Source of the DNA: Piscinibacter defluvii
Lineage (GTDB): Bacteria; Pseudomonadota; Gammaproteobacteria; Burkholderiales; Burkholderiaceae_C
Direction of reading: 5' to 3'
Assembly: GCF_004011805.1 (NCBI RefSeq)
Contig: NZ_ML137196.1
Coordinates: 369,024 to 433,023 of the forward strand
Length of the DNA: 64,000 nt
Below, piece by piece: positions 6,897-26,853 of this stretch (positions within the stretch are counted from its first letter, which is position 1; the number at the start of each line of letters is the position of its first letter). The translations under genes and the position numbers were made by a program. The notes beneath the pieces are model-generated. The model had not been told where the DNA came from and ran no database searches. It saw only the letters and a list, made by a program, of their open reading frames with translations.

Positions 6897-7011
6897 GCGG
6901 AGGGGGGCCGATCCACCCCTTCTTTCGGCCCCGGCAGCAAGGACTTGAGCCTTCGAGCCGATGTGGCTTCGCCGCTCGCGCTGAACCCCCGGCGGGGGGG
7001 CGCTCAGAGGC

Positions 7012-7614
7012 TCAGAACAGCGCCGCCTGGTCCGCCGCCTCGAACAGCTTGCGCGACAGCTCGCGCATCTGCTGGTTGATGTCCTGCGAGGGCGGCGTGC
7101 TGGCGCGGGCGCTCCAGGCCGGCTTGCCGCTGCGCACGTCGCTGACGCGGCCCTCGAGCGCGAAGCCGTAGGTGGTCTGGCCGCCGGCGATCGGGGCCGA
7201 CACGCCGACCCCGCCGCGCACGCTGCCGCCGCCCAGGCCGAAGGCACCCAGGCCGATCGAGAAGCTGGGCGTTGCGCCGGCGCCGGCCACGCTGACGCGG
7301 TTCACCCACAGCGCACGCACGCCGAGCTTGCCGGCCGCGGCCAGCAGCGGCGCATCCCCCTGGCCCGGCGCGAACTCGGGCGCCGGCACCGGCGTCGCAT
7401 TGCGCGCGACGAGTTCGGACGCGAGCTGGTCCTGGCAGAGCTTCTTCAGCGTCAGGTCGGGCGCCTCGCAGGCCACCATCACACGGGCGCCGCGCAGCAG
7501 GTCGGGCGGGCGCTGCGGGTCGCTCCATTGCGCGTCGACCTGGGTCGAGGCGCAGCCGGCCAGGGCCAGCAGGGGCAGCAGCGCAAACGGGAGCAGGCGG
7601 CGGGCGGGGTGCAT
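7012..7614 (-). CDS. lipoprotein (signal peptide with lipobox LAGC)
   Basis: MHPARRLLPFALLPLLALAGCAST... is a type II signal peptide with a lipobox. About 200 aa. It lies 44 bp downstream of the giant operon on the same strand. Confidence 0.6.
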   Translation of the reverse strand: MHPARRLLPFALLPLLALAGCASTQVDAQWSDPQRPPDLLRGARVMVACEAPDLTLKKLCQDQLASELVARNATPVPAPEFAPGQGDAPLLAAAGKLGVRALWVNRVSVAGAGATPSFSIGLGAFGLGGGSVRGGVGVSAPIAGGQTTYGFALEGRVSDVRSGKPAWSARASTPPSQDINQQMRELSRKLFEAADQAALF

Positions 7615-9496: not shown

Positions 9497-9498
9497 GG

Positions 9499-12400
9499 TC
9501 AGCGCAAGGTGGCGAGGCCGGGCGACACCGCGTCGCCCTCGGCGTTGACGGCCAGCCCGAGGGCCGGCAGGAAGTGCGCGAGCTCGCCGACCGCGCTGCC
9601 GGCCGCGCCGACCGGGTCGACGAAGGCGCGGTCCAGCGCCTCGGCGTCGACCGCGCGCAGCGCGGCCAGCTCGAGCGTCTCGAGCAGCAGGCGGTGCAGC
9701 GACCAGCCGGTCCAGGGCTGCGCGGCATCGGGCGGCACGGCCAGCAGCACGGTCTGCGGCGCGCAGGCATCGGGCGCGTCGAACTGGAACGCGATGCCGG
9801 TGCTCTCGCGTTCGTTCGGCACCGTCTCGACCCAGTCGTCCAGCCACAGGCCGGCCAGCGGCTGGGTGGCGTCGAGTCCGTCGTCGGCCTGCAGCACCAG
9901 CGAGAGCTTGCCGGCCGGGATGGCCTGTCCGGGCAGCGGCGCCAGGCCGACCCAGCGCTCGCCGGCCACGTGCGGCAGCTGCGCCACCGCCAGGCGCGGC
10001 CGCTCGGCGGCACCGATCGCCTCGGCCGCGTGCAGCAGCGCGCCGGCGCGGCCCACGCCCTCGCGCACGCGCGCCAGGCGCTGCCACCACGGGTGCAGCA
10101 CCAGCGGGTCGCCACCCAGCAGCACCGGCCCGGCGGCAAGCGACGCGTTCAGCTCGGCGCCATTGGCCGGCACGAAGGGCGCGAGGGCCAGGAAGTCGGC
10201 GCCGAACAGCGTCTTCAGCCGGGCCGAGGCAGAGGCCGCCCGCTGGCGCGCGTCGGCGCCGGCCGGGCTGCGCTGCGCGGCCAGCGCCGCCAGCCGCCGC
10301 GCGGCCTCGGCCTGCACCGGGCGCGCCTGCAGCAGCAGCGCGGCACGTTCGGCGGCTGCCTCGGCCAGCGGCGCACCCGGCACGGTGCCGGCCACGCCGT
10401 AGCGCAGCAGCGCGAGCAGCGCCTTGCGCAGGGCCGGGATGGCCGCCGTGTCGGGCGTGGCCAGCAAGGCCTGCAGCGGCGCCAGCGCGGCGCCCAGGCC
10501 GGCCTCGGCGGCCGCGGCGCGTGCCTCCAGGTCCTCGGCCGCGGGCTGGCCGTTCGCGCTGGCCGCCGGCCCGGCCAGGTCCAGCGGGTCGAGCATGCGT
10601 GCGCCGGCCAGGCATTGGCGCGCCCGGGCCGCGACTTCGAGCGCCTCGCGCAGGCTGAACTCGCCCGCCGCCCAGCCGCTGCGCCGGCGCGGGTCCAGGC
10701 GCAGCGGCGCGCCGGCGGGCACCCCGGCCAGCTGGCCGCGCGCGACCTGCAGCGCGAGCGCGTCGAGCTCGGGGGTGGCGGCGCCGGGGCGCGCCGGCGC
10801 CATCCAGACCAGGTCGAGCGGCGCGAGCGCCAGCGCCGACAGCCGGCATTCGAGCCGGCGCAGCACGCGGCCGGCCGCGTCGAGCTGCTCGACGCCGTAG
10901 CGCACCCGGGCCGGCAGCGGCAGCAGCCGTGCGGCCCAGGCGTTCAGGCGCGGCTCGGCGGTGGCCCGCGGCGACGTCGTCGGCCGGGCCCAGCCGGCCG
11001 GCGCCGTCGTGGCGGCCGGGGCGGCCAGCAGCCAGGCCACGCGCTGCGTCAGCCCGGTGCCGCTGCGCGGCGTGCGCGCCACCGTCAGCTCGGGCGGCGG
11101 TGCCTCGCCGTGCGCGATGGCGGCCAGCGTGCTGGCGCTGCGCGCGGTGTTGCCGCGCACCGTCTGGTGCACGGTCTCGGCCAGCACCGCATCGGCCAGC
11201 GCGTCGACCGTGTCGTCGAGCACCCGCAGCGCCGCCGCGCAGACCGCGAACGGCGAGTCCGCCGGCAGCGGACCGCCCGGCGCCAGCGCCTGCTGCCACA
11301 GCTGGTGCAGCCGCAGGCCGTCGACCACGCGGTTCGCGGCCACGCTCTCGGCGCTGGTGCCGGGCGGCGCGTCGGCGCTTTGCAGCGGCGCCAGCGCGCG
11401 GCAGCGCGGCACCTGGGCGTCGAGCCCGCGTTCGTGCAGCTCGCGCTCGAAGCGGTAGCCAAGCAGCGCGCCGAGCGGCTGGCCCTGGCGCACGCCGTCG
11501 AGCAATTGCTCGGCCAGGCGCACGCGCCGCGAGGACAGGTCCACCGCGAAGGCGCCGGCCGCCTGCAGGTTGGCCTTGCCGAGGTGGCCGTTGCGCAGCA
11601 GCGCGGCGGTCTGCGCCTGCTCGAGCGAGGGCGCGTGCAGGAAGCCGGGGTCGTCGCGCAGCGGGTAGACCGGGCCGGTCTCGCCGGGCGGCGTGGGCAG
11701 CGGCGCGATGGCCGGCGCGGCGCGCAGGTTCAGCACCCAGCCGTAGCCGCCGCAGCGCAGCCCGGTGGCGCGCGTGCCGCGCAGCGCCGCGAGGCGGCGC
11801 GTGGCCAGCGAGGTGATCCAGGCGTCGAGCCGGTGCGCGGCGCAGTCCAGCGTGCCGGCCAGCAGGCGCTGCAGCGCGGGGGTGGGCAGGCCGGCCAGGT
11901 GGGCGAAGGCCTCGCGCAGGTCGCGCAGCGGCGCGGCCTCGGGGGCCTCGAGCCCGGCCGGCGTGGCAAGGAAGGCGCCGAGCGGCTGCCCGCCGCTGGC
12001 CTCGGCACTTGCGGCGAGCTGCTCGCGCCAGGTGGTGCTGCGCGTGGCGGCGTTGAAGTTCATCAGCTCGACATCGCGCCAGGGCCCTGGCGGCACCGCC
12101 TGGCCCCGCGCGGCCAGGCGCAGCGCGGCGGCCAGCGTCTCGAGCTGCAGCGCGTGGCGCAGCAGCGCCTGCAGCAGTGAACGCGCATCGGTCGGCGCAC
12201 CCGGCGCCGCGGGCGGCGGCTGCAGCGGCGGCGCGGCCAGCAGGGCCTGGATGAACGCGGCCTCGTCGTCGCGCACCAGCGGCACGCCGAGTGCCTCGCT
12301 GCCGGGCGCGAAGGCCGATTCGGCCAGGCGCGGTCGCCCGGTCAGGCCGAGCTGGCGCCACACCGCGTAGGCCAGCGTGTCGCGGGCAGCCGCCCAGCCG

Positions 12401-13920
12401 CTGGCCGCGGGGTCGACCCCGAGGAAGCTGCGCAGGTGCTGCAGGTAGCGCGGGCCGAGCAGCTGGCGCAGCCGGTAGCCGGCCGCGACCGCATCGCTTT
12501 GCAGCGCGGCGGCGAGCTCGGCGTCGGCCGTGCCGCCGTTCGGGCGTCCCAGGCGCGGCACGCTGTCGATGCGTGGCCGCCAGAGCCGGTCGCGCAGCGT
12601 GACGAGCAGGTCGCGCAGGCGCTGCTCGCGCGCCGCGTCGGGGTCGCCGGCACGCGGCGCCAGGTCCGCCAGCAGCGTGACCGGCAGCAGGCCGTAGGGC
12701 TGGCGCCCGACGCGCAGCGCCGGCAGCGGGCCGAACGGGCGCAGGAAGTCGAGCGCATGGCCGCGCACCCAGTCGAGCGCGGCCGGCGTGAGCCCGGTGC
12801 CGACGAAGCCGATCAGGTTGGCGAGGTGGTAGCCCCAGGTGGCCGGCCAGAGCGCCGCGGCCATCTGGCGCGCGTCGAGCTGCTCGCGCGCGGCCGCGCC
12901 CTCGAGCCGGCCGAGCGCGGCCAGCGCCGGCGCGTCGGACAGGCCGAGCGAGCGCGCCAGGCGCTCGGCCTGCGTGTGCGGCGCGAGCGTGGCGAGCGCG
13001 TCGCGCCACAGCGTGTCGAAGCTGCGCCGGTGGCCGGGGTCGCCGCTGTCGTGGCCGGAGGGCTCGTCCTCGGTGTTGTTGGTCGGCGTCGCGCTGGCCA
13101 GGAAGGCCAGGCCGTCGGTGTGCCGGTGCGCCTCCAGCAGCCCGGCCAGGCCGGCCGAGGCGTCGGCGGCCGCGCCCACGCCGAACACCAGCAGCACGTC
13201 GACGCCGGTCACGCCGACCGGCAGCAGCAGGCGCAGCGCCATGCCCTCGCGCTCGGCGGTCTCGAAATCGACCATCCAGCGCATGCCGGCGTCGATGGCG
13301 AGCTGGTCCTCGCGCGTCGGCGGGCTGCTGCCGGTCACCGCCGGCCCGAGCGCCGGGGCGCGCTTGATCGGCCGCCCCTGCGCCTGCGCGACGACCTGCC
13401 CCCCGGCACGGGCCACGGCGAACCAGCGCTCGGGCATCAGCCGCGCCACCGGCGTGATGCTCCAGCCCGAGGCGCCCGCCGCCGGCCGCGGCGTGACGGC
13501 CGGGAAGCGCGGCGTGCCGGGCTTCGCCGGGTCCGGCCCGGGCGCGTTGGTCGGCGTCAGCACCTGCGCGATCCAGGCCGCGCGGGCCGCGTCGAAGCGG
13601 TCGGCCAGCTGCTGCCAGGCGGCGCGGCGCTTGTCCTCGCTGGTGCCGGCCAGCCAGGTCTGGGTCCAGAAGTGCTTGCCCCATTCGATCTCGGCGGCGG
13701 TCAGCGCACGTTCGTGCGCGTCGACATGGAGCTGGTCCGGGAACACACGCACGCGCAGCTCGCTGCGGCCGTCCGGCTGCGCGAAGAAACGCGTCTCCAG
13801 CCGCACCGGCAGCAGCGCGAGCGGCAGGTCGCCGGGTGCGAGCGGCGCGGCCAGCTCGGCCGGCACGGGCTGCGGCGAGAAGGCCAGCAGCTGGATCATC
13901 GAGGGCAGTACCGTCGGCAT
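9499..13920 (-). CDS. hypothetical protein, 1473 aa, Ala/Leu-rich and probably largely alpha-helical (gene 4 of giant operon)
   Basis: [18 protein letters not shown]...[10 protein letters not shown]... is continuous, non-low-complexity and spans 4.4 kb. The start lies 13 nt after the stop of gene 3. No recognised domain. Confidence 0.65.
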
Positions 13921-13933
13921 GGTGGGGGCGCGG

Positions 13934-16891
13934 TCAGGCGGGCAAGAGCTCGCTGGCGTGGATCAGCACGCGCACCGGCAGCTGCAGCAGCGCACGTGCG
14001 GCCTGCCCGGCATGCACGGCCCAGGGCGTGGCGGCGGGGCGCGGCGAACCATCGGGGTTCAGGTCGAGGCGCAGGTGGCTGCCGGCGCCCGTGGCCGGCG
14101 GCGCGTCGACGCCGAAGCGCGGCTCGGTGGGCTGCTGCTGCAGCACGAAGTACCAGCCGGGGTGGCCGATCGCCTCCGCGACCGGGATGTCGAAGCCGAA
14201 GAACGCGATGTCGGGCTCGAGCGCGCCGCGGAACAGCGGCAGGCGTTCCTCGCCCGCCCCCTCGGGCGGCCGGCGCTGCGCGCCCTGCGCGACGCCGCGC
14301 ACCGCGTACACCGCCGTGCCCGGGTAGCGCCGCAACAGCACGCTGCGCAGCAGCAGCACCAGCGGTGGCGGCATCGGCGCGCCGGTCACCTCGCGCGGGG
14401 CCTGCTCGCCGAGCCGCGCCGTGCCCCAGCCCGCCAGCGGCACGATGTCGCCCGGCACCGTGGCACGTGCGCTGCGCCAGAAGCGCTCGAAATACGTGCC
14501 CGTCTCGTGCGCGAGCGGGAAGTCGCGCCAGACCAGCTCGCGGGTCATCTCGACGTTCAGGCCGAGCATGAAGGCCTCGATGAAGCGCCGGTTCGGCTCG
14601 AGCAGCGCCACCGTGTCGGCCGGCACCTGCTGCAGCCCGGGCAGCAGCCAGTCCTGCGACAGCCGCGCCAGCGCCTCGGAGGCCGGCAGCGTGTAGCGCG
14701 GGATCAGGCCCAGCGCGCCACCGGGCAGCGTGGCGGCCGCGGGGGACGGCGCCGGTTCCGCACGCTGCACCGCGGCGCGCCAGCGCTGCGCCAGCATCGG
14801 CGCCGGGTCGAGCTGCGCCTGCACGCTGGGCCGCTGCGCCACCAGCAGCGGTTCGAGGGCCAGCAGGGTCAGCACCGGCGTCGGCGCCGGCGCCGGGTTG
14901 ACCAGCGCAAGGTGGCGCCGGGCCGCGGCGCGGAAGCGGGCCGCGTCGGCGCTGTCCACCGGCACCGGCGGCGGCGCCGGCGGCTCCACCGGCGGCGGCG
15001 GGTCCGGATCGGGGTCGATCGGCGGCGGGCCCTCGCCCGGCGGGAAGATCGGGATCAGCCGCGCCGGCGCCGGCGCGCCGCGCGTGACCACCGTGGCCGG
15101 CGTCGCGACCAGCAGCGCCGGTGGCTCGGGCGCGACCACGAAGCCCGGGCGCCGCGGCGCGCCGGCCACCGCGGCGTCGGTCATGCCGGCGTACAGCAGC
15201 GACGGGTTGGGCGCCGGCGCGCGGCGGCTGACGTCGTCGACCGTGACGCAGCCGCGGGCCTCGGGCACCGGGCGAAAGATCACCGACGCGGTGAAGAACA
15301 CCTGGAACAGCCGCCCGGTGGCGACCACCGGGGGCGCGGCCACGTCGAGCTTGCGCGCCACCCGCGCGGAGCGCCGCGCCAGCGCGCCGCGCGGCCGCGT
15401 CAGGCGGCGCAGCGGCGCGGACAGCGTCGCGTCCGACGCGTTGGTGCGCGCGATCAGCGCGCGCATCGACGCGGTGGCGCCCGGCGCCGGGTCCTGCGGA
15501 TCGGGCAGGCGCAGCTGCGCGCGCGCCGGCGCGGCCAGGCGCCACAGCATGTCGTCCTGCCCCGCGGCGCCTTGCGTGAACGGGCGCACGTGGCGCTGCA
15601 GCAGCCGCGTGCCCACCGCGCCGGCCAGCTGCAGCTGGCGCAGCCGCTGGTTGACCGCCGCCATCTCGCCGGCCTGCGCCCAGGCCTGCGCGACCAGCTC
15701 GTCCTGCTGCGCCTGCACGACGCGCGTGCCGAGCCCGGCGGCGACGCGTTCGCGCGGGTCGAGGTTGATCTCGTCGAGCCAGGTCGGCGGCAGCGTGCTG
15801 CCCACCTGCCGGCGTCCGGCCAGCCAGCGGCCGTAGACCGGCGGGCCGACCAGCGGGTCGTCGTCGTCGGCACCGAGGCTGGTGTTGAGCAGCGCCTGCA
15901 GCGCGGCCTGCCAGCCCGGGCCGGCCGCGTCGGCCAGCGCCATGCGCGCCATGCCCACCGGCTGCAGCGCGCCCTCGAGTGCGATCAGGCCGTCGCGGCC
16001 CGGCGTGGCGGCATAGGCGAAGCCGGGCCGGCCGATGTCCAGCGGGCGGCGCCCGACCAACTCGGACAGGTCGCGCGGCACCAGCCGGTCGACGATGGTC
16101 TCGAAGTCCTCGCGCGCACCGGTGCGGAACTGCCAGTGGTGGTAGACCGGCAGCGCGATGCGCGACGGGTCTTCCGCGTTCGGCCAGGCCGGCGCCAGCG
16201 TGGCGCTGGCCGGCGGCGGGAGGTTCAGCCCGGCGCGCCGGCCGACCTCGAAGGTGGGCACCACGCAGGCCAGGTACTCGGTGTGCGCCTCGAGCCGGCG
16301 CGGGCTGAGCAGCCGCGCCACCGACAGCTCCGGGCGCGTGGCCACCAGCTGCTCGAGCGCCGTGGGGCTGGGCGGCGCATCGCCGGTCCAGCTCAGCTGG
16401 GCATGCGCCCAGGCCCAGGATTGCGCCAGGTCCGGCAGCTCCTCGGCCACGCGCGCCGGCGCGCCGATCTCCAGCACCGGCAGCGGCTCGCTGCCGGCCG
16501 GGCGCAGGCGCACGCCGTCCTGCACGCGCACCACCACCAGCGCGATCCACGGCCGCAGCCGGCCCTGCGCATCGGCCGCGGCGGGCGTGAAAAGCCACGG
16601 CAGGTCCGGGTTGTCGAACTCGATGGCCGCCAGGTCGAGCGCCTCGAAGTCGGTGCTGCCGTCCGGCGGCTCGGTGCGCAGCACCTGGCGTGGATCGATG
16701 CCGATCACGTCGGCCGGGCCGCGCACGCGCACGTCCACGCCCGGGTCGGTGGCGGCGCTGCCGGTGACGGCCAGGCTGACCTTCAGGTTCACCGAGGCCG
16801 GCAGGCCCGGCGCGCCGGTGTCGGGCTGCGCCAGCCGCGCGGCGAAGCCCTGGCGCAGCCAGGGGAAGAAGAGCAGGCGCGCGGTGGCCAT
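13934..16891 (-). CDS. hypothetical protein, about 985 aa, with a central Pro-rich linker (gene 3 of giant operon)
   Basis: [20 protein letters not shown]... The Pro-rich tract [29 protein letters not shown] (about 14951..15058) separates two halves. The start was chosen at the first ATG downstream of the palindromic element. The in-frame upstream extension to 17083 runs into that element. Confidence 0.6.
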
Positions 16892-17162
16892 CTCAGAAGC
16901 TGTGGGAGAACCCAACGCACCCGCGCCGGGGTGGCCAAGGGCCTTGGGCGAGGCGCGGCGCGCCGCCCAGACTGGCCGTCTGGGCCAGCGGCGCAACGCG
17001 GCCCAAGGCCCTTGGGTACCCCGGCCCGAAGGGTGAGCCCCGGGAAAGGGCCCACTGCGCGATGCAAATGCTCGACGTGCCACCCGGCACGTCTGTGCTT
17101 TGCGCCTCCATTGGGCCCTTTCCCGGGGCCCACGCGGGTGTGTTGGGTTCTCTCACAGCTTC
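16892..17162. repeat. 271-bp nested inverted-repeat (palindromic) intergenic element inside the giant operon
   Basis: Outer 31-bp inverted repeat agaagctgtgggagaacccaacgcacccgcg / cgcgggtgtgttgggttctctcacagcttct with 29/31 matches. Inner inverted repeats: ccggggtggccaagggccttggg / cccaaggcccttgggtaccccgg, a gcccagac-tggcc-gtctgggc hairpin, and a perfect 17-bp inverted repeat ccccgggaaagggccca / tgggccctttcccgggg around a gtgcc-accc-ggcac hairpin. Confidence 0.6.
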
Positions 17163-20100
17163 TCAGTTCGCCTCGAGGAAGGCCGGCATGGCGACCGGTG
17201 CGAGCGTCACACGCGGCGCCGGCGGCGCGTCGGCCAGCAGCGGCTCGGCGCGCCGCAGCGTGCTGCGCGCGGCGGCACCCTGGCGCGCGTGCAGCTCGGC
17301 CTGCGCGCCGGCCAGGGCGTAGCGGGGCAGCGTCCGCACGCGCTGCGGCGACTCGGGCGCGAGCGAGCGGTCGATCACCTTGGTCTCGTACTCGAGCGCG
17401 TACTCGGCCGCCTGGTCGAGCCGGAAGGCCGGCGTGCCGAGGCCGAGCTGCACGCCCGCCTCCATCGGCACGAAGGACGGGCTGGCCAGCATCTGCGCAT
17501 CGCTCAGCTCGAAGAACTGGGCCGGGGCGAAGTCCTCGTGCAGCCGCGTCAGCGTCTGCGGCGGCTCGGCCCGGCCGTCCACGCTCACCGCGCCGATGGC
17601 GAGCGTGCGCGCACCGAGCACCGGCGCACCGCCGAAGCGCCGCACCGGCTGCGGCGTGGCCAGCGGCACCACGCCCTGGCGCACCACCAGGCTGGCCAGC
17701 GGATGCACCAGCACCGGCGCGCCCGCGCTCGTGGTACCGCCGGGCTCGCGCAGCACGACGATGCGCGACTGCCCGGGCGCCAGCTCGCCATGCCAGTTGC
17801 GCGCGTCCGTCAGCGCGGCCACGAGCTGCGCCAGCAGGTCCACCGCCGGCGGCGCGGGCGGCCGGGCGCCGGAGATCAGCGTCGCGTCGACGCGGATCGA
17901 GACGTCCCACCACAGGATCTCGAACGTCGCCTTGGCCCGCAGCGCGAGCGGCCGCGGGCCCTCCAGCGCACCCTCGACCTTCACCTTGAACAGGTTGCGC
18001 GTGCCCTTGCGGATCTGCATGCTGGCCAGGAACTCGGCCAGGAAGTGGAACGGGTTCAGCGTGATCAGCACGTCGAAGCCGACGTCGCCGGTGACGTTGA
18101 AGCTCATCGGCCCCTCGGCATACAGGTGCGCCGCGGCGCCGAACTGCACGGTGTTGGAGGTGAGCGCGAAGTAGGCCTCGCAGGAGAGGCGCGGGTTGCT
18201 GCCGGTGGTGAGGTTCAGCGCCAGGCGCTCGAGCTTCGGGAAGCCGGCCGGCGGCGCAAACGCATGGTGCAGCCCGCCCACCGCGAGCGCGAAGCTGCGC
18301 GGCGAGCGCCAGCGCATGCGCAGCGCCATCGCGCCGGTCAGCACGAACTTGTCGAGCAGCTTCGAGTCGACCAGCACCGCGTCGACCGCGGCCGTGCCCT
18401 GGTCGAGGTCGAACACGCCGAGCGCGTCCATGCGCAGCACCAGCAGCGGGCTCTGCTCGCGCGGCAGCAGCGCGCTGATGCGGCCCAGCACGAACAGCCG
18501 GTCGCGCACGCCCCACTCGACCAGCACCGCCAGGTCCATGGTCACGATGACCGGCACGCCCCAGGTGATGCGCAGCATCGGCCCGAGCACGTAGCTGCCG
18601 CGCTGCGCCGGGAACACGCGCTCCAGCCCGGCCAGGATGGCTGCCGCATTGGCCACCGGGTCCTTTGGGAACAGGATCAGGTCGAGCGTGCGCTGGCGCA
18701 GGCCCTCGCGCAGCGCGTCCTCGCTGACGGTGCGGTGGATCGCCAGCAGCCCGCCGATGCCGGCCAGCTCGAAGCCCATCGGCAGGCGGATCGGGCGGAA
18801 GCCCTCGGCGGTGATCAGCAGCACCATCGAGTAGCCGCGCGCGCCGTCGGGCAGGCGCGTGGAGATCAGCCCGACCGCCTTGACCGACACCAGCTGCGAG
18901 ATCTCCAGCTCGAGCATGCCGGCGTACTGCCCCTTGACCGGGTCGTGGAACACGAAGCCGCCGCCCTTGACGCTCTTGGCGTCGACGACGAGTCCGATCG
19001 CGCGCGGCGCGAGGAAGCCGAGGTCGAGGTTCACCAGGCCGAGGTTGGCCTTGGCCATGTCCTGCGGGTGCGTGACGGTGGCGCGCAGGCCGATGTGGTC
19101 CACGCGCGCCAGCACCGGCCCGATGCGGCCGGACAGCGACAGCCCGAGCGAGAGGTCCAGGTGCGGCGCGGGGTCGAGCCCGCCGTCCACGCCGAGCAGC
19201 AGCTCGTCGAGCCGCACCGGCCCGAGGCTGCGGCCCACCGCGATGCGCCGGTGCAGGCCCTTGGCGGCCGGCTCGCCGCCGGGCAGCAGCGGCAGCGGCT
19301 GGTCGGGCACCGGCTGCGGCGGCTTGGGCGGCGGCGCGGGCACCTTCTGGCTCTCGAAGTCCTTCAGCCCGCCGGTCAGCTGCCAGCCCTGGCCGCTGGC
19401 ATAGCGCGTGCCGATGTCGAACTTGACGGTGGTCTTGCGGTCCGGCAGCAGCGAGCCGATGAAGCCGTCGATGGTGCTGGCGTCGAAGCTCAGCACGCAG
19501 CCGAGCAGCGCCAGGTCCAGGCTCGGCCCGCCCTCGTCGACCGCGGCCTTCAGCGCGACGCTGCGCACGCCGAAGCTGAGCATCCTGGTGTCCGGGAAGC
19601 GGAACAGCAGCGCACGGTCGGGCGTCTCGGTCGAGCGCAGGGTGAGCGCGATGCGCTGCCCGGCCGGCGCCGCCGCGCTGATGTCGTTCGCGCTGAACCA
19701 CAGCGGCAGCCCGGCGGCCTGCAGTTCGAAGCGCAGGCGCAGCCGCTTCGACAGCGCGACCTCGAGGTCCTCCTCGCCGCTCAGGCCCACGAACAGGCCG
19801 GGGCCGCCATGCGCCTCGGGGATCAGCGCAAGCGTGGTGGCGAGCGAGGCGTCGAGCGTGCTGGTCGGGTCGTCGTCCTTGTCGCGGGCATGCCAGCGCA
19901 CCGTCAGCATGCGGCTGGACAGCAGGTCGGCGGTGGACTCCGGCGTGGGGATGGCCTGCAGTGGCGGCACGGTGTCCCAGCCGTACAGCATGTCCAGCGC
20001 GTCCTGCTTCGCCCAGTCCTGGAACAGGCCCTTCTTCGCGATGCGCATCACCGCCAGCACGATGGCGGCCAGGCGCAATGTCGGGTTGGACAGCGCCTGC

Positions 20101-20612
20101 GCGTCGCCCTCGCTCGCGAGCCGTTCGAACGGCCCGCTGCCGGCGAACAGGAACTTCAGCAGCCCGACCACCGCGGACAGCGCCCGGTCCAGCGTGGTGT
20201 AGCCCTCGCCGAGCGGCGACGCGGTCTCGGCCATCCAGCCGACGAACTGCATCACGAACCAGAGCTTGGGGCGGTGCCGGTAGACGTAGTCGGTGGCGAG
20301 CAGGTCGATGGCCAGCACCTGCACCTCGTCGGCCACGTCGACCAGCAGCTCGTCGAGCTTCTTGCGCCGCTCGGTCAGGGCCTGCAGCAGCGCGAGCAGG
20401 TCGATGTCCTCGCCGCCGACGTAGCGGTCCAGCGCCGTGTCGCCGCCCGACGGTGCCGGCGCGGCACCGAGCGGGCCGAGCGCGATGCCCAGCGTGCGCG
20501 CCAGCGCCTCGCGCTGCGCCGCATCGCCCAGCGTCGCCTCGACGTAGCGCAGGAAGGCGATCAGCTCGCCGACCAGTCCGCGCAGCAGGGAGCCGTCGTG
20601 GTCGTCGGTCAT
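17163..20612 (-). CDS. hypothetical protein, 1149 aa, with an internal Pro-rich linker (gene 2 of giant operon)
   Basis: MTDDHDGSLLRGLVGELIAFLRYVE... has diverse composition. The Pro-rich tract QKVPAPPPKPPQPVPDQPLPLLPGG lies at about 19261..19362. The ATG lies 4 nt after the stop of gene 1. Confidence 0.65.
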   Translation of the reverse strand: MTDDHDGSLLRGLVGELIAFLRYVEATLGDAAQREALARTLGIALGPLGAAPAPSGGDTALDRYVGGEDIDLLALLQALTERRKKLDELLVDVADEVQVLAIDLLATDYVYRHRPKLWFVMQFVGWMAETASPLGEGYTTLDRALSAVVGLLKFLFAGSGPFERLASEGDAQALSNPTLRLAAIVLAVMRIAKKGLFQDWAKQDALDMLYGWDTVPPLQAIPTPESTADLLSSRMLTVRWHARDKDDDPTSTLDASLATTLALIPEAHGGPGLFVGLSGEEDLEVALSKRLRLRFELQAAGLPLWFSANDISAAAPAGQRIALTLRSTETPDRALLFRFPDTRMLSFGVRSVALKAAVDEGGPSLDLALLGCVLSFDASTIDGFIGSLLPDRKTTVKFDIGTRYASGQGWQLTGGLKDFESQKVPAPPPKPPQPVPDQPLPLLPGGEPAAKGLHRRIAVGRSLGPVRLDELLLGVDGGLDPAPHLDLSLGLSLSGRIGPVLARVDHIGLRATVTHPQDMAKANLGLVNLDLGFLAPRAIGLVVDAKSVKGGGFVFHDPVKGQYAGMLELEISQLVSVKAVGLISTRLPDGARGYSMVLLITAEGFRPIRLPMGFELAGIGGLLAIHRTVSEDALREGLRQRTLDLILFPKDPVANAAAILAGLERVFPAQRGSYVLGPMLRITWGVPVIVTMDLAVLVEWGVRDRLFVLGRISALLPREQSPLLVLRMDALGVFDLDQGTAAVDAVLVDSKLLDKFVLTGAMALRMRWRSPRSFALAVGGLHHAFAPPAGFPKLERLALNLTTGSNPRLSCEAYFALTSNTVQFGAAAHLYAEGPMSFNVTGDVGFDVLITLNPFHFLAEFLASMQIRKGTRNLFKVKVEGALEGPRPLALRAKATFEILWWDVSIRVDATLISGARPPAPPAVDLLAQLVAALTDARNWHGELAPGQSRIVVLREPGGTTSAGAPVLVHPLASLVVRQGVVPLATPQPVRRFGGAPVLGARTLAIGAVSVDGRAEPPQTLTRLHEDFAPAQFFELSDAQMLASPSFVPMEAGVQLGLGTPAFRLDQAAEYALEYETKVIDRSLAPESPQRVRTLPRYALAGAQAELHARQGAAARSTLRRAEPLLADAPPAPRVTLAPVAMPAFLEAN

Positions 20613-20616
20613 CGCG

Positions 20617-23600
20617 TCAGCTTCCGAGCGCCCGCAGCCTGTCGACCAGCGATTCGCCGAGCGGGGCCTTGAGCGGCTCGTCCTCGGGCCGCACCGCGCC
20701 GGCCGGCGGCGTCAGCTCGGCGCGCTGCTCCATCGCCACCTCGGGCGTCAGCAGGTGCGGCTGCTCGGCGCCGTCCAGCGGATCGGGCAAGGGGCAGATC
20801 ACCTGGTGCACGGCCTCGAGCACGTCGCGCCGCGCGCTGCCGCTGCCCTCGGTGCGGCGAGCGAACAGCACGCGGCCGAGGTTGCTGCGGAACAGGATGA
20901 AGCGCGAGTGGCTCAGCCGGTCGAGCTGGCGCACGTGGCGCGCGGCCACCTGCGCATAGGCGTCGCGCGCGCGGTCGCCGCCTTCCTCGAGCTGCGCGCG
21001 GCTCGGCGCGCCGCCGGCGATCGGCGCCGGCCGCGCCATCGCCGGGCGCGTCGTCGTTCCGGCATCCGGCCGCAGGTCGAACACCGGACGCAGGGTCCAC
21101 GAGAAGTCGGGCCGGCGCTCGCTGCGCACCGTGGTGCCGGCCGGCCAGCCCTGTGTGGGCAGGAAGGCCGGCCGCTGCGGGATGCGCTTGCGCAGCACGA
21201 TCGGCACGTCGCGCTCGCTGCGCCCGGGCGGGAAGGCGAACGCGCCATCGGCGCCGTCGAGCCAGCCGAGCCGGTCGCCGCCGATGTCGCGGCGCACCAG
21301 GTCCTGCGCGAACGAGAGGCTGTGGTCGATCAGCGTGATGTACGAGGGCATCACGTTCTTCAGGCCGCTCGAGGTGAACTGCAGCAGCCGCGCCGGCTGC
21401 GCCTCGCCGCGCCGCCAGTAGCTCATCTGCGTGGCGCTGCTGTAGTGCACGTCGCCCGACAGCAGCACCACGCGGCGGTGCGGCGCGAGCCGCGCCGTCA
21501 GCGCCTCGAAGGTGGCGGGGTCGAGCGCCCAGCTCTCGATCGCGTCCGGGTTCAGCCCCGGCATGCCCTCGCCGCCGCGGCCGGCGCCGATCTGGCCCGG
21601 CGTGGAGAGATCGAACGCGCGGTACGCGCCCGGCGCCACCACCTCGTCGAACACCGAGGGCGCCAGCACCTGCAGCGGCGCCACCACCAGCAGCACCTCG
21701 CGCCCGGCCGGCAGCGGCGCGGCGGGCACCTGGTCGTCGATCATCGTGGCGGCCACGTTGCCCGGCGGGCCGAAACGCGACGCGAAGCTGCGCCGCGTGC
21801 GGTTGTCGAGCACGGCGACCTGGAAGCTCGAGCCGTCGACCGTGTAGTGCCACTTCATCGGTGCGTTCACCGGTGCGTGGCGGCCGTGCGGGCGCGCCGG
21901 GTCCACCGGCTGCGGCAGCAGGTCGAGCCCGAACAGCCGGTCGAGCTCGCGCGTGGCGGCGGGCAGCGGCCACTCGGCGGCAGCGGCGCCGAACAGCCGC
22001 ACCACCTGGTTGAGCACCAGCCGGCCCGGCGCGCCGGCCTCGTAGCGCAGCAGATCGTTGCCCCAGTCCTGGAACACCGCATAGGCGGCCAGCGCATTGC
22101 GCACCACCTGGCGGCCGAGCGGCTGCGTGCGCACCGCGTCGGCGGCCAGCACGCGGCGGCACCACTCGGGGTTGAGGTTCCAGTCGTCGGTGACGTCGTG
22201 GTCGTCGAACACCATGTAGGTGGGCACGTTGGCCAGCGCGCGGCGCACCTTGGGCTGGCCGGCCGCAAAGCGGCGCAGCCGCGCCAGGTCGACATGCACG
22301 CCGCGCCACACCGGCCAGACATGCTCGCGCGCGAATTCCTCCACGCAGCGCGCCAGCGCGGTCTGGCCCAGGTTGACGTAGCCGTCGTCCGCGAAGGTCT
22401 TGCGCTGGGCGGGTGTCGGGTCGTCGGTCCAGCCGGTGACCAGGCACTCCAGCAGCGCGCCCTCCAGCGCCGCGTCGGCCACGTCGGGCGGCGCGGACAC
22501 GGCCACGCCGCCGAGCGTGGGCACCTCGGGTGCGAGCCAGGGCCGGGCCTCGGCCACCTGCAGCGCCTCGCGCAGGAAGGCGGCCCACTGCGCGGCGGGC
22601 ACCAGCGTCTTCAGGTGCTCGCACCAGCGATCTTCCTGCTGGTCGTCGTAGCGCTGCCGGCGCCGGCGCAGCTCGGCCAGGATGGCCGTGGGTCCGGCCA
22701 GCAGCACGCGCTGCGGCGGCTGCGCTTGCGGGTCGATCACGCAGTCGACGTCCGCCACGCGCGCGATGCCGAAGCGCTTGACCAGCGCGCGCATCACGCG
22801 CGCCTGCAGCTGGCGCATGAAGGTCTGCACCACCGCGGCATGCTTGCGCGCCAGCTCCTCCATCGCGCGGCCGGTGTCGGGGTCGAGCTCGGCACGCTGC
22901 TCGGCGCCCAGCAGCGCCAGGCTGTCGGGGTCGCCGATCAGCGCCAGGAAGCCGGCATGGCCTCGGGGCGGATTCGACCGCGCGAGGCGCTGCAGCATGA
23001 AGTGCGCGAAGCAGTCGGCCAGGCGCCGCTTGTTGCGCGGGCCGACGACGCCGGTCTTCTCGTCCGGGCGCGGGCGGATCGCGTTCCAGTCGGACCAGCG
23101 CGCGTTGCCGAAGTAGTCGACCGAGGCATCGTCCAGCCGGCTGCGCGCGTACATCGGCGCCGCGTCGATGTTGTCCTTGCCGGGCGAGCGCGCCACCGCG
23201 TCGAGCGGGATCTCCTTCAGCGCCTCCCAGCACCAGTCGGCATCCACGGTGAGGTACATCGCCGCGAACTCGCCGAACGAGAGCAGGTGGCTGCTGCCAT
23301 CGCTCGAGGTGAAGCGCGCATCGGCCCGCGTCAGCTCGAGCCGCCCGCCGGGCGGGAAGGCATCGAGCGTGGCCGGGTAGCGCTGCGATGCCAGGTCGAG
23401 CTTCGCGTCCTTCAGCACCGGCACTCGGCCGACCAGCAGCGATTCGGGGAAGGTCGCGAAGGTCTTGAGCCGCGTGCCGGCGGCCCGCAGCGTCTCGACC
23501 TTGGGCGCCGCGGGCGACTCGCTGTCCGACAGCAGGCGGTGCGCCAGGCGGTTCAGCAGCATCAGGTGGGGCGCGGAGACGTCGTCGGCGTAGATCTGGT

Positions 23601-24255
23601 CGCCGCCCAGGTAGAGCTGGTGCGGGCGCTTCAGCGCCGCCGGGCCGAGCGGATCGCCCTCCTGGCGCGACTGCCCGGCAAACGCCTGCTCGACCAGCGT
23701 GTCGATCCACGGCATCGCGTCGTAGTGGTCGTTGGCAACGCGCCGGCACGAGCCGTACAGCACGTTCAGGTCGGTCAGCAGCGCGGGCGGCAGCGCGAAG
23801 CTGGGCAGGAATCCGGCGGTGTAGCCGAGCGGCGCCTCGCTGACCCAGGCGCTCGGCGGCAGCCCGGCGGCGCTGAAGCGGCCGAGCAGGCCTTCGCTGG
23901 CGAGGCTGCGCTTGCCCGTGCCGTCGGCCGGCTGGAAGGCCAGGTCGTAGGCGTAGTTGACCCCCGGCTGCAGCGCCACCGCTGGGGCCGGCCGGCGCAC
24001 GACGACCAGCGCCACGTGCAGCCGCTCGCCGATGCGCAGCGTGGCCGTGGCCGGCGACACGGAGATCGCCTTGACCGTGGTGCCCGACTTGCGCAGCCCT
24101 TCCCAGACCGACAGCGTGACCGTGGCACTGCGGCTCAGCGCCACCCACACCGCCACCGCACGCGGCTCCACACGCCGCAGGATCGGGCCGGCCAGCACGA
24201 ACGGCAGTTCCACGCGCGGGGTCTCCTCGGGCCGGTGCCACGGCGCCCATCGCAC
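20617..24255 (-). CDS. PhoD-like metallophosphatase-family protein, greatly expanded (1212 aa) (gene 1 of giant operon)
   Basis: Ordered PhoD-like motifs are present: YGSCRR (about residue 168), LGGDQIYADD (about 218; nt about 23590-23605), MVFDDHDVTDDWN (nt about 22170-22206) and LLSGDVHYS (nt about 21440-21466). An N-terminal region is reminiscent of the PhoD N-terminal beta-sandwich. The motifs are spread over about 700 residues, against about 300 in a canonical PhoD. Confidence 0.65.
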   Translation of the reverse strand: MRWAPWHRPEETPRVELPFVLAGPILRRVEPRAVAVWVALSRSATVTLSVWEGLRKSGTTVKAISVSPATATLRIGERLHVALVVVRRPAPAVALQPGVNYAYDLAFQPADGTGKRSLASEGLLGRFSAAGLPPSAWVSEAPLGYTAGFLPSFALPPALLTDLNVLYGSCRRVANDHYDAMPWIDTLVEQAFAGQSRQEGDPLGPAALKRPHQLYLGGDQIYADDVSAPHLMLLNRLAHRLLSDSESPAAPKVETLRAAGTRLKTFATFPESLLVGRVPVLKDAKLDLASQRYPATLDAFPPGGRLELTRADARFTSSDGSSHLLSFGEFAAMYLTVDADWCWEALKEIPLDAVARSPGKDNIDAAPMYARSRLDDASVDYFGNARWSDWNAIRPRPDEKTGVVGPRNKRRLADCFAHFMLQRLARSNPPRGHAGFLALIGDPDSLALLGAEQRAELDPDTGRAMEELARKHAAVVQTFMRQLQARVMRALVKRFGIARVADVDCVIDPQAQPPQRVLLAGPTAILAELRRRRQRYDDQQEDRWCEHLKTLVPAAQWAAFLREALQVAEARPWLAPEVPTLGGVAVSAPPDVADAALEGALLECLVTGWTDDPTPAQRKTFADDGYVNLGQTALARCVEEFAREHVWPVWRGVHVDLARLRRFAAGQPKVRRALANVPTYMVFDDHDVTDDWNLNPEWCRRVLAADAVRTQPLGRQVVRNALAAYAVFQDWGNDLLRYEAGAPGRLVLNQVVRLFGAAAAEWPLPAATRELDRLFGLDLLPQPVDPARPHGRHAPVNAPMKWHYTVDGSSFQVAVLDNRTRRSFASRFGPPGNVAATMIDDQVPAAPLPAGREVLLVVAPLQVLAPSVFDEVVAPGAYRAFDLSTPGQIGAGRGGEGMPGLNPDAIESWALDPATFEALTARLAPHRRVVLLSGDVHYSSATQMSYWRRGEAQPARLLQFTSSGLKNVMPSYITLIDHSLSFAQDLVRRDIGGDRLGWLDGADGAFAFPPGRSERDVPIVLRKRIPQRPAFLPTQGWPAGTTVRSERRPDFSWTLRPVFDLRPDAGTTTRPAMARPAPIAGGAPSRAQLEEGGDRARDAYAQVAARHVRQLDRLSHSRFILFRSNLGRVLFARRTEGSGSARRDVLEAVHQVICPLPDPLDGAEQPHLLTPEVAMEQRAELTPPAGAVRPEDEPLKAPLGESLVDRLRALGS

Positions 24256-24375
24256 GCGGCACCGGCACCGTAGTCCCTTGGCCGCACGCGCGTATCCCTA
24301 GTTCGGCAGGTGTCGGAGCGGCCCCGGCAGGCGCGCCGATCTAGCATGCGGCGGCACACAACCCCGGGAGCCCCC

Positions 24376-26853
24376 ATGCCGCTCGACCTCGACGCCCTGC
24401 TCGATGCGATGACGCTCCCCGAGCAGGTGAGCCTGCTCGCCGGTGCCGACTTCTGGCACACCGTGCCGATCCCGCGGCTCGCGGTGCCGTCGGTGAAGGT
24501 GAGCGACGGGCCGAACGGCGCGCGCGGCGGCATCTTCAAGGACGGGCCGAGCACCGCGTGTTTCCCGGTGGGCATCGCGCTCGCGGCCACCTGGGACGCC
24601 GCGCTGATCGAGCAGACCGGCGAAGCCCTCGGCCGCGAGGCGCGGCTCAAGGGCGCTCGCGTGCTGCTCGCGCCCACCGTGAACCTGCACCGCACCGTCT
24701 ACAACGGCCGCAACTTCGAGTGCTACTCGGAGGACCCCTGGCTGGCCGGCGAGATCGCGGTGGCCTATGTGCGCGGCCTGCAGCGCACCGGCGTGGCGGC
24801 GACGGTGAAGCACTTCGTCGGCAACGAGAGCGAGTTCCAGCGCCTGACCATCAGCTCCGACATCCCCGAACGCGCGCTGCGCGAGCTCTACCTGCTGCCC
24901 TTCGAGCGCGTGGTGCGCGAGGGCGGCGCCTGGGCGGTGATGACCGGCTACAACCGCGTCGACGGCAGCTTCATGGCCGACCACCGGCGCCTGGTGGAAG
25001 AGGTGCTGCGCGGCCAATGGGGCTTCGACGGCCTGGTGATGACGGACTGGGCCGCGGCGCACGACACCGTGCGCAGCGTGCTGGCCGGCTGCGACCTCGA
25101 GATGCCCGGCCCGGCGCGCGAGCGCGGCGCGAAGCTCGTCGAGGCCGTGCAGGCCGGCCGCCTGCCCGCGAGCGCGGTGCGAGCCTGCGCGCGGCGGGTG
25201 CTGCGCCTGGCCGAACGCGTGGGCAGCTTCGCGGACCCGACCCTCCCGCCCGAGCGCGCCGACGACCTGCCCGAGCACCGCGCGCTGATCCGCCGCCTCG
25301 GCGCGGCCGGCTGCGTGCTGCTGAAGAACGAGGGCGGGCTGCTGCCGCTCGCACCCGCGCCGGGCCAGCGCGTGGCGCTGATCGGCCGCGCGGCCACCGT
25401 GCCGCAGATCATGGGCGGAGGCAGCGCCAACGTGAACGCACATTACCGCAGCGCGCCGGCCGACGCGCTGCGCGAGGCCTGCCCCGAGGTGGGCTTCACG
25501 CACCATCCGGGCGCCGACATCCACCGCCTCGTGCCGCGCCAGCCGCGGCCGATGACGCTGGAGATCTACGCCAGCGCCGATTTCTCCGGCCCGATGGTGG
25601 CGACCCAGACCGTGCCCGACAGCGAGGTGCAGTGGATCGGCAGCCGGCCGCCGGGCATCGCCGAGGGCACGCCGTTCTCCTGCCGCGCGCGGCTGGAGTA
25701 CGTCGCCGAGAGCGACGGCGAGCATGCCTTCTCGCTCGTCTCGGCCGGCCGCTCGCGGCTGGCGATCGACGGCGTTCCGGCGCTCGATGCCTGGCGCGAC
25801 TGGCGGCGCGGCAGCACCTACTTCACCTTCGGCTGCGACGAGGTCGTGCACCGGCGCCGGCTGCGCGCGGGCGAACGGCTGGCGCTGCAGGTGGAGTTCA
25901 GCAGCGCGCTGCCCGACGTGCCGGGCCAGCAGGCCGGCGTGCACGCGCTGCGCGTCGGCGCGAGCCGGCTGCTCGACGAACGCGACATCGAGGCCGCCGT
26001 CGCGGCGGCGCGCGGCGCGGACCTGGCGATCGTGTTCGCCGGCCTGAACGCCGAGTGGGACAACGAGGGGCTGGACCGCCCCGGCATCACGCTGCCGCAC
26101 CGCCAGGACGAGCTGATCGCGAAGGTTGCCGCCGCCAACCCGCGCACCGTGGTCGTGCTGCAGAGCGGCTCGCCGCTGCTGCTGCCCTGGGTGGCCGACG
26201 TGCGCGCCATGCTGCAGGCCTGGTATCCCGGCCAGGAATGCGGCCACGCGATCGCCGACGTGCTGCTCGGCGCGGCCGAGCCCGGCGGCCGCCTGCCGCA
26301 GAGCTGGCCGGCGCGCATCGAAGACACCGTGGCGCATGGCGACCCGGCCGCCTACCCCGGCGTGGACGGCCACGTGGCCTACACCGAGGGCCTGCTGATC
26401 GGCTACCGGCACCACGAGGCACGCGGCATCGCACCGCGCTTCGCCTTCGGCCATGGCCTGAGCTACACGCGTTTCGAGCACAGCGGCCTGCGCTGCGATC
26501 GCCCCACCCTGCGGCCGGGCGAGACGCTCGGCGTCGCCCTCACCGTGCGCAACGTCGGCCCACGGGCCGGCAGCGAGGTGGTGCAGCTGTACGTGCACGA
26601 CGAGCAGAGTTCCCTGCCCCGGCCGCCGCAGGAGCTGAAGGCCTTCGCGAAGGTCTTTCTCGCGCCGGGCGAATCCCGCGAGCTGCGGCTGACCCTGTCG
26701 ATGCGCAGCTTCGCGTTCTACGACGACCGGCGTGCGGCCTGGGTGGCGGAGGCGGGGCGCTTCGAGTTGCGGGTGGGGGCGTCGGCGGCGGACATCCGGC
26801 TGCGGGTGGGGGTGGTGCTGGAGGGGGAGTGGGTGGAGGCGGTGGAGATGTGA
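24376..26853 (+). CDS. glycoside hydrolase family 3 beta-glucosidase (BglX-like)
   Basis: MPLDLDALLDAMTLPEQVSLLAGADFWHT... VKVSDGPNGARG... is GH3 N- and C-domain architecture. A GGGAG RBS lies 6 nt upstream of the ATG. The gene is divergent from the giant operon. Confidence 0.85.
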   Translation: MPLDLDALLDAMTLPEQVSLLAGADFWHTVPIPRLAVPSVKVSDGPNGARGGIFKDGPSTACFPVGIALAATWDAALIEQTGEALGREARLKGARVLLAPTVNLHRTVYNGRNFECYSEDPWLAGEIAVAYVRGLQRTGVAATVKHFVGNESEFQRLTISSDIPERALRELYLLPFERVVREGGAWAVMTGYNRVDGSFMADHRRLVEEVLRGQWGFDGLVMTDWAAAHDTVRSVLAGCDLEMPGPARERGAKLVEAVQAGRLPASAVRACARRVLRLAERVGSFADPTLPPERADDLPEHRALIRRLGAAGCVLLKNEGGLLPLAPAPGQRVALIGRAATVPQIMGGGSANVNAHYRSAPADALREACPEVGFTHHPGADIHRLVPRQPRPMTLEIYASADFSGPMVATQTVPDSEVQWIGSRPPGIAEGTPFSCRARLEYVAESDGEHAFSLVSAGRSRLAIDGVPALDAWRDWRRGSTYFTFGCDEVVHRRRLRAGERLALQVEFSSALPDVPGQQAGVHALRVGASRLLDERDIEAAVAAARGADLAIVFAGLNAEWDNEGLDRPGITLPHRQDELIAKVAAANPRTVVVLQSGSPLLLPWVADVRAMLQAWYPGQECGHAIADVLLGAAEPGGRLPQSWPARIEDTVAHGDPAAYPGVDGHVAYTEGLLIGYRHHEARGIAPRFAFGHGLSYTRFEHSGLRCDRPTLRPGETLGVALTVRNVGPRAGSEVVQLYVHDEQSSLPRPPQELKAFAKVFLAPGESRELRLTLSMRSFAFYDDRRAAWVAEAGRFELRVGASAADIRLRVGVVLEGEWVEAVEM

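Follow-up and report, generated by a model that had tools for sequence, protein, structure and literature searches.

A probable MITE on the stop codon of gene 2, at a stop-start junction of a giant-gene operon of Piscinibacter

The only large gap in an operon of very large genes of Piscinibacter defluvii is explained by a 267-bp non-coding element, almost wholly self-complementary, which is located between genes 2 and 3 at positions 16896-17162 of the window, that is, of the whole 64,000-nucleotide stretch of contig NZ_ML137196.1 analysed here. This element is very probably a non-autonomous transposon with terminal inverted repeats (TIRs) of 30 nt, which would have been mobilised in trans by a DDE transposase and would have landed on the stop codon of gene 2. 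The features which define a MITE structurally, namely TIRs, a target-site duplication (TSD) that varies between loci, small size, lack of coding content, dispersed copies and empty sites, are all found in the sequences compared. A MITE-like insertion between genes 2 and 3 had already been suggested by the sequence-only reading of this DNA, and the other copies, the TSD and the empty sites of the form TGA-G-ATG bear it out. The element is of an ordinary kind, unless its RNA structure makes the placement at an operon junction functionally tolerated.

The operon is an array of very large ORFs on the minus strand (window 7658-26598), with lengths of 766, 1219, 1149, 985, 1473 and ~610 aa. Gene 2 (17163-20612, minus strand; 1149 aa) lies upstream of the element on the operon strand and carries DUF6603 (Pfam PF20248, E = 7.8e-121; orthologues P0001-P0013). 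Gene 3 (13934-16891, minus strand; 985 aa) is intact, it starts with the ATG at 16891-16889 (minus strand), 1 nt after the left copy of the TSD, and no Pfam family was matched by its product. Within the whole array Pfam recognises only DUF6603, besides a faint precomputed PhoD match on the orthologues of gene 1. The order of the giant ORFs is kept in orthologous contigs (L002, L004 and L005) down to 67% identity. Just downstream of the array, a gene for a 500-aa protein with a GGDEF domain (diguanylate cyclase) is located (window 5745-7247, minus strand).

The architecture of the element is that of nested palindromes. In detail, the left TIR (16896-16925, GAAGCTGTGGGAGAACCCAACGCACCCGCG), which is also present at six other loci (L001 and L006-L010), and the right TIR (17133-17162, CGCGGGTGTGTTGGGTTCTCTCACAGCTTC) are complementary at 28 of their 30 nt, and the TIR consensus of the family is GAAGCTGTGAGAGAACCCAACG[CT][AG]CCCGCG. 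A 23-nt word of the TIR occurs twice in the window against an expectation of 0.00. When the flanks are included, the repeat search gives an outer inverted repeat with arms of 40 nt (16886-16925 and 17133-17172, 88%). It encloses the inner pairs A (16922-16949 and 17001-17028; 28 nt, 89%) and B (17033-17057 and 17109-17133; 25 nt, 92%), the latter including a perfect 17-bp pair, CCCCGGGAAAGGGCCCA, at 17038-17054 and 17112-17128. These pairs belong to two hairpin modules. Module A (16926-17024) has a stem of ~24 bp around a conserved asymmetric core, which contains the small apical hairpin CCCAGAC-TGGCC-GTCTGGG (16966-16984). Module B (17038-17128) consists of the perfect 17-bp stem and the apical hairpin GACGTGCC-ACCC-GGCACGTC (17074-17093), and it is missing in the short members of the family. 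Between the two modules, the linker (17025-17037) holds a 3-bp mini-hairpin, CCC-GAA-GGG (17025-17033), whose loop varies among the three full-length copies (GAA, TGC and TTC). All the parts noticed in the sequence-only reading, that is, the outer repeat, the two inner pairs with the perfect 17-bp one and the small hairpins, were recovered. The interval which had been given to them, 16892-17162, does contain the inverted-repeat element, yet the element proper begins at 16896 and is flanked by duplications of 3 bp.

The insertion was examined through the relatives of the operon. Orthologues of gene 2 were located by protein search, and their contigs were inspected at the junction of genes 2 and 3. 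The closest one is from Piscinibacter sp. MQ-18 (GCA_003265685.1, scaffold KZ836143.1; L002), where the gene 2 orthologue P0001 has 96% amino acid and ~95% nucleotide identity. The element is missing there: the last position of gene 2 is 7453 and the first of gene 3 is 7455, with the sequence GCGCCG-TGA-G-ATG-AGC-ACC-GCG-CGC-CTG-CTC. Similarly, the junction of a Logan metagenome contig (L003; P0002, 91% amino acid identity) is without the element and reads GTGCCC-TGA-G-ATG-GCG, and in the distant orthologues the two genes are separated by a spacer of 3 nt (L004, 73%) or 5 nt (L005, 67%). The respective sequence of the window is GCGAAC-TGA-[267 bp]-TGA-G-ATG-GCC-ACC-GCG-CGC-CTG-CTC, and the reconstructed pre-insertion junction is GCGAAC-TGA-G-ATG-GCC, a stop-1nt-start arrangement (empty site GCGAACTGAGATGGCC). 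The BLAST alignment of L002 with the window has a nucleotide identity of 90-95% on both sides, breaks over the element and resumes at 16895. As judged from these alignments, the 267 bp at the junction are shown to be an insertion.

Some local differences accompany this comparison. The final ~13 codons of gene 2 (window 17166-17203, L002 7412-7450) gave no nucleotide alignment with MQ-18, whereas the rest of the gene is ~95% identical; the C-termini are ...PAFLEAN in the window, ...PSFLAAP in MQ-18 and ...PAFLQVP in L003, each directly followed by the stop. Within the gene 3 orthologue of L002 (~9770-9830), a stretch of 19 residues is duplicated around an X, which looks like a scaffolding artefact.

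The same junctions bear on the coding content of the element. An ORF in frame with gene 3 extends to a GTG at 17083, and two of the three frames of the operon strand are stop-free, as expected at ~74% G+C; accordingly, the outer repeats and part of the interior could be read as coding for an N-terminal extension of gene 3, an option that the sequence-only reading had raised. The orthologues, however, begin at a Met which matches 16891, 1 nt after the upstream stop, and the extension consists of sequence of the element, which those orthologues lack. Since gene 3 aligns with its L002 orthologue from the first Met (87% identity), the long in-frame extension to 17083 is non-coding and should be annotated as such; the coding alternative is thereby excluded with near certainty.

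Other copies of the element were found at unrelated loci, as the earlier reading had proposed to look for with the TIR. A scan of 185,579 species-representative genomes, one per species, with the exact word GAAGCTGTGRGAGAACCCAAC gave a single locus, on the MQ-18 scaffold KZ836171.1 (L001). This copy is 275 bp long, and its similarity to the window (96.4% identity) covers 276 bp and stops at the limits of the element. The flanks are unrelated: it stands between a tRNA-Leu(TAA) and an MFS-like gene, whose ATG follows at a distance of 8 nt. The neighbouring gene is tentatively called MFS-like from the translation of its N-terminus only. Thus, MQ-18 carries the element at this locus and is without it at the operon junction. 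Right after the L001 copy (4113-4260), a short stretch is duplicated around an N, again with the look of a scaffolding artefact. The metagenome scan added five contigs (L006-L010), three of which are from one metagenome (Ga0075366), and the family now counts seven copies at seven unrelated loci, the window included. Judged by this distribution, the element is shown to be mobile.

The copies fall into different sizes. L007 has a full-length copy of 272 bp (95.6% identical), L010 has a copy of ~165 bp (552-722) with both TIRs and one hairpin module, and L006 has only the TIRs, in ~51 bp (183-238). The copies of L008 and L009 are partial, truncated at the contig ends, and that of L009 has two A-type modules. 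None of the size classes (267, 165 and ~51 bp) is long enough for a transposase gene, and all the copies recovered by the exact-word scans are non-coding, besides one chance match. The latter is an 18-mer in the viral contig scan (L011), with no further similarity. BLAST against 72,556 plasmids, both with the element and with the TIR consensus, gave no match, and in the 64-kb window no further TIR or inner-hairpin core was found beyond the element. MITEs are usually present at high copy number. Here, one copy was found in the 64-kb window and one copy with an exact TIR in MQ-18, counts which come from scans that demanded 17-20 exact bases. A family with such modular hairpin content (51, 165 and 267 bp) is apparently undescribed; a full-text search of the literature gave nothing relevant, whether on the TIR itself or on MITEs of the genera Piscinibacter, Methylibium, Rubrivivax, Leptothrix and Ideonella.

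The genes next to the copies differ. In L010, the element is flanked by two genes of the same strand, one for an ABC-transporter ATPase and one for a family-3 solute-binding protein, which makes it another intra-operon insertion. In L009 (1589-1774), the two A-type hairpin modules stand in opposite orientation and the contig ends inside the element; the frame of the neighbouring minus-strand gene (GC3 0.90, lipobox-like LLLAGC) is open through the TIR (...RARWVLSQLLGTTLLLAGC...), and it may be that the TIR contributes the start of a signal peptide or that the gene is disrupted. In L007, an IS110-family transposase gene (35-1057, minus strand; PF01548 and PF02371) lies beside the full-length copy, on the side of 1058-1302, where ~240 nt of non-coding DNA separate the start of the IS110-family gene from the terminus of the element. 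An IS110-like element may have been inserted there exactly at the end of the MITE.

Duplications of the target were expected beside the outer repeat if the element is a transposon of this kind, and in the window they are TCA/TCA. The left copy (16893-16895) is TCA on the plus strand and TGA on the operon strand, where it is followed by a G and the ATG of gene 3; the right copy (17163-17165, minus strand) serves as the stop codon (TGA) of gene 2. The duplications of the other loci with two clear sides are TCA/TCA in L001 and TTA/TTA in L010. Because the triplet varies by locus, it is duplicated target DNA of the form TNA (3 bp) and not element sequence. L006 and L008 show TCA at the visible left side, and the right end of L006 fits only after a loss of 2 bp (TC). 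The exceptions are L007, with a duplication on one side only and CAA (instead of TGA) where the IS110-family gene adjoins, and L009, with CCA. The left flank is visible in five copies and reads C|TNA in four of them, L009 being again the exception, and in the window and L001 a G follows also on the 3' side (CTCAG).

These findings determine which mobile elements are comparable. REPs and BIMEs mobilised by a RAYT (a tyrosine/HUH transposase like that of IS200/IS605), or a mobilisation by an IS110-family recombinase, could be considered, given that the element is a GC-rich extragenic palindrome, intercistronic like the classical REPs, and that an IS110-family transposase gene adjoins the L007 copy. 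However, REPs are 20-40 nt long and have neither long TIRs nor TSDs (PMC2817692), and the element has TIRs of 30 nt and locus-specific TSDs of 3 bp (TTA in one locus, TCA in others). In addition, IS110-family elements do not have long TIRs and none is found beside the other six copies, and the inner hairpin cores are not repeated elsewhere in the 64-kb window. The long TIRs and the TSD thus contradict the REP-like nature which had been offered earlier as one option, and an origin through either RAYT or IS110 activity is highly improbable.

Long TIRs combined with a TSD of fixed length indicate a DDE transposase acting in trans on a non-autonomous transposon. The insertion footprint makes the IS1031 group of the IS5 family the favoured candidate for this transposase, though with a good deal of doubt. 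The termini of the IS5 family typically start with GA... or GAG... (ISfinder consensus). The ends of the element begin GAAGCTGTG, and the TIR of ISLrh, a member of the IS1031 group, begins GAACCTGTC (PMC12016507), which is a single comparison. Elements of this group insert at 5'-TNA-3' with an exclusive 3-bp direct repeat (PMC12016507), and this repeat is matched by the family TSDs TCA, TCA and TTA. The eukaryotic NuwaII/PIF-Harbinger transposons, which are related, use C|TNA|G as their target (PMC4482050). The transposase would make a staggered cut at C|TNA|G and duplicate the 3-bp TNA. No autonomous IS with TIRs of the GAAGCTGTGAGAGAACCC type was found in the exact-word scans (17-20 bases) of genomes, metagenomes and viruses or in the plasmid BLAST.

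In three of the six copies with a visible upstream end the insertion coincides with a stop codon. For the window this is the TGA of gene 2. The TSD of L010 is the TAA stop of the upstream ABC-transporter ATPase gene, and that of L006 coincides with the TGA that ends an upstream co-oriented UPF0114 gene. TNA and CTNAG sites are common, with 17.5 and 0.95 per kb, respectively; since insertions within genes would be purged, survivorship explains the stop-codon pattern without special targeting. Active targeting of stop codons is not claimed here, as the survivorship of non-disruptive insertions suffices.

The RNA of the operon strand is predicted to fold in the shape of a Y, with an outer stem and two long hairpins, that is, three near-perfect duplexes of 24-33 bp, the outer stem being the one of 33 bp. 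The fold energy is -231.7 kcal/mol, compared with -144.4 +/- 5.7 in dinucleotide shuffles (z = -15.2), and none of the 200 shuffles was as good. The RNA folding that had been recommended as a check therefore places the element far beyond its shuffles, and, whichever strand is taken, all the complete copies also fold far better than theirs; their z ranges from -6, in the 56-nt form, to -19. When the three full-length copies are compared, two of the 115 base pairs predicted carry compensatory double substitutions, at columns 38/130 (G-C to A-U) and 156/228 (A-U to C-G), three carry wobble-compatible single changes and one is broken; the remaining differences are in loops. The stems of module A diverge extensively between the size classes and keep their self-complementarity, and the core ...CCCAGACTGGCCGTCTGGGC...GCGGCGCAACGCGG is conserved, including in L008, L009 and L010. 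The comparison, made on few sequences, shows that palindromy is maintained among the copies, and the constraint behind it could be on the DNA, the RNA or the copying mechanism.

A very stable fold in an intercistronic position, together with the two compensatory and three wobble-compatible changes of the full-length copies, would also be expected of a structured regulatory RNA specific to this operon (an attenuator, a processing or stabilising site, or an sRNA) that is not mobile, and an intra-operon attenuator or RNA acting in place was among the earlier suggestions. Compensatory changes, however, are expected of any palindromic DNA element. The two closest orthologous operons lack the element at this junction and copies of it lie beside unrelated genes on other contigs, so it is not an attenuator or in-place RNA specific to the operon. 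Furthermore, the L010 copy carries the core of module A in the opposite orientation to that of the window, hence the orientation of the element to the transcription of the neighbouring genes is not fixed. The Rfam search at a permissive E-value had no match at the gathering threshold, the best being MIR6450, a model of a plant miRNA hairpin, with 30.4 bits against a threshold of 70. The sub-threshold matches are models of miRNA hairpins on both strands, a generic effect of long hairpins. Neither a U-tract terminator nor a promoter is present on the operon strand. The empty sites largely refute the regulatory RNA, which is now very unlikely.

As an inserted MITE, the element has left the coding sequences around it in order. 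The TSD regenerates the TGA of gene 2 and the arrangement TGA-G-ATG is kept before gene 3, thus both reading frames are undamaged. The Shine-Dalgarno-like GAGG is now ~280 nt upstream of the gene 3 ATG, whereas its distance was 9 nt in the empty site as reconstructed. The element offers no outward-facing Shine-Dalgarno sequence, the promoter scan gave no sigma-70-like promoter in it, and the terminator scan gave no GC-rich stem with a U-tract on the operon strand (minus). The only terminator-like site of the region 16600-17500 is located at 17074-17103 on the plus strand, antisense to the operon, and its pattern is the tip of module B, GACGTGCC-ACCC-GGCACGTC, followed by TGTGCTTTGC.

The element would be co-transcribed with the operon and would place a stable Y-shaped RNA in the polycistronic transcript. 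Gene 3 would then lose its translational coupling or be translated less. RNase III would cut the long duplexes and separate the upstream from the downstream half of the mRNA. It is known to cleave the TIR stems of co-transcribed Correia/NEMIS MITEs (PMC10969869; PMC2229807). By this analogy, processing of the RNase III type would be the most likely effect at the RNA level, with a decoupled or reduced translation of gene 3. The element may also set a different expression of the two operon halves, as the sequence-only reading had suggested.

A different outcome for the operon would follow if the MITE had been exapted and its RNA structure let the operon go on functioning. Lengthened by the CTNAG target, itself palindromic, the 33-bp outer stem would bring the gene 2 stop and the GAGG opposite the AUG of gene 3 at the base of the helix, and ribosomes that terminate or are bound at the Shine-Dalgarno sequence would still initiate on gene 3. 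This would be a discontinuous ribosome-binding site, like those of gene 38 and gene 25 of phage T4, or a shunt-like transfer over the base of the structure. The MFE helix does begin at the stop codon and end 1 nt before the AUG, the GAGG stood 9 nt from the ATG prior to the insertion, according to the reconstructed junction, gene 3 and the genes downstream are intact, and two more members of the family sit on stop codons of upstream co-oriented genes, one of them in an ABC-transporter operon. However, intact downstream genes are equally predicted by a recent insertion, and the stop-codon positions can be explained by survivorship at TNA sites. The modelled fold geometry would permit such initiation and nothing else speaks for it; moreover, the fold pairs the second codon of gene 3 with part of the GAGG, which would hinder initiation. 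We know of no documented split ribosome-binding site in which anything nearly as bulky as a three-way junction of 267 nt stands between the Shine-Dalgarno sequence and the AUG. An exapted MITE is accordingly considered unlikely.

The same geometry, extended to the whole family, leads to the proposal of a 'self-insulating' element: the stop codon is regenerated, the terminal stem of 30 bp folds out, the stop and the Shine-Dalgarno sequence come to lie beside the AUG, and coupling would survive an insertion of 270 nt. In a genome of ~74% G+C, the TNA would often be a TGA or TAA stop, and coupling would proceed through a discontinuous ribosome-binding site or a prokaryotic shunt-like transfer. 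If true, such elements could colonise operon junctions at little cost. The proposal is a doubtful one, with only a small chance of being right.

The MITE at the gene 2/gene 3 junction provides a natural pair of closely related Piscinibacter-like genomes, one with and one without a MITE at a stop-1nt-start junction. With this pair, a hyper-stable RNA of 267 nt can be tested directly against translational coupling, polarity and mRNA processing in a betaproteobacterium of very high G+C. The element also points to an IS1031-type transposase that is yet to be found in the lineage.

Among the known systems, the Correia/NEMIS elements of Neisseria (~100-200 bp) are similarly short and non-coding, with TIRs of ~26-30 nt and a short TSD. 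They are often co-transcribed with their neighbours, also inside operons (mtrCDE), and their TIRs form long RNA duplexes (PMC10969869, PMC2229807). On the other hand, the element has no sequence similarity to Correia and its host belongs to a different betaproteobacterial lineage. Its target and TSD are TNA (3 bp) instead of TA, and its interior, unlike that of Correia, consists of two long nested hairpins and has no promoter-like sites. Its copy number, according to the exact-word scans, is apparently low, compared with more than 100 per genome for Correia. The REP/BIME and ERIC/IRU sequences of enterobacteria are intercistronic within operons, like the element, and through their stable RNA hairpins the mRNA segments upstream or downstream can decay differently (PMC10969869; also works cited in PMC3184786). 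REPs are nevertheless without the TIR and TSD anatomy and are linked to RAYT transposases, and ERIC is an unrelated sequence of 127 bp.

The IS1031 group of the IS5 family (ISLrh and IS1031) shares with the element the TNA target and the exclusive 3-bp repeat, but its members are 850-1050 bp long and encode a DDE transposase, whereas the element has 267 bp and is non-coding. Tourist-type MITEs and PIF/Harbinger-NuwaII belong to an IS5-related transposase superfamily with a TSD of 3 bp, and NuwaII has the target C|TNA|G (PMC4482050). Tourist and PIF/Harbinger elements have eukaryotic hosts and share no sequence with the element, and their likeness to it is one of mechanism only.
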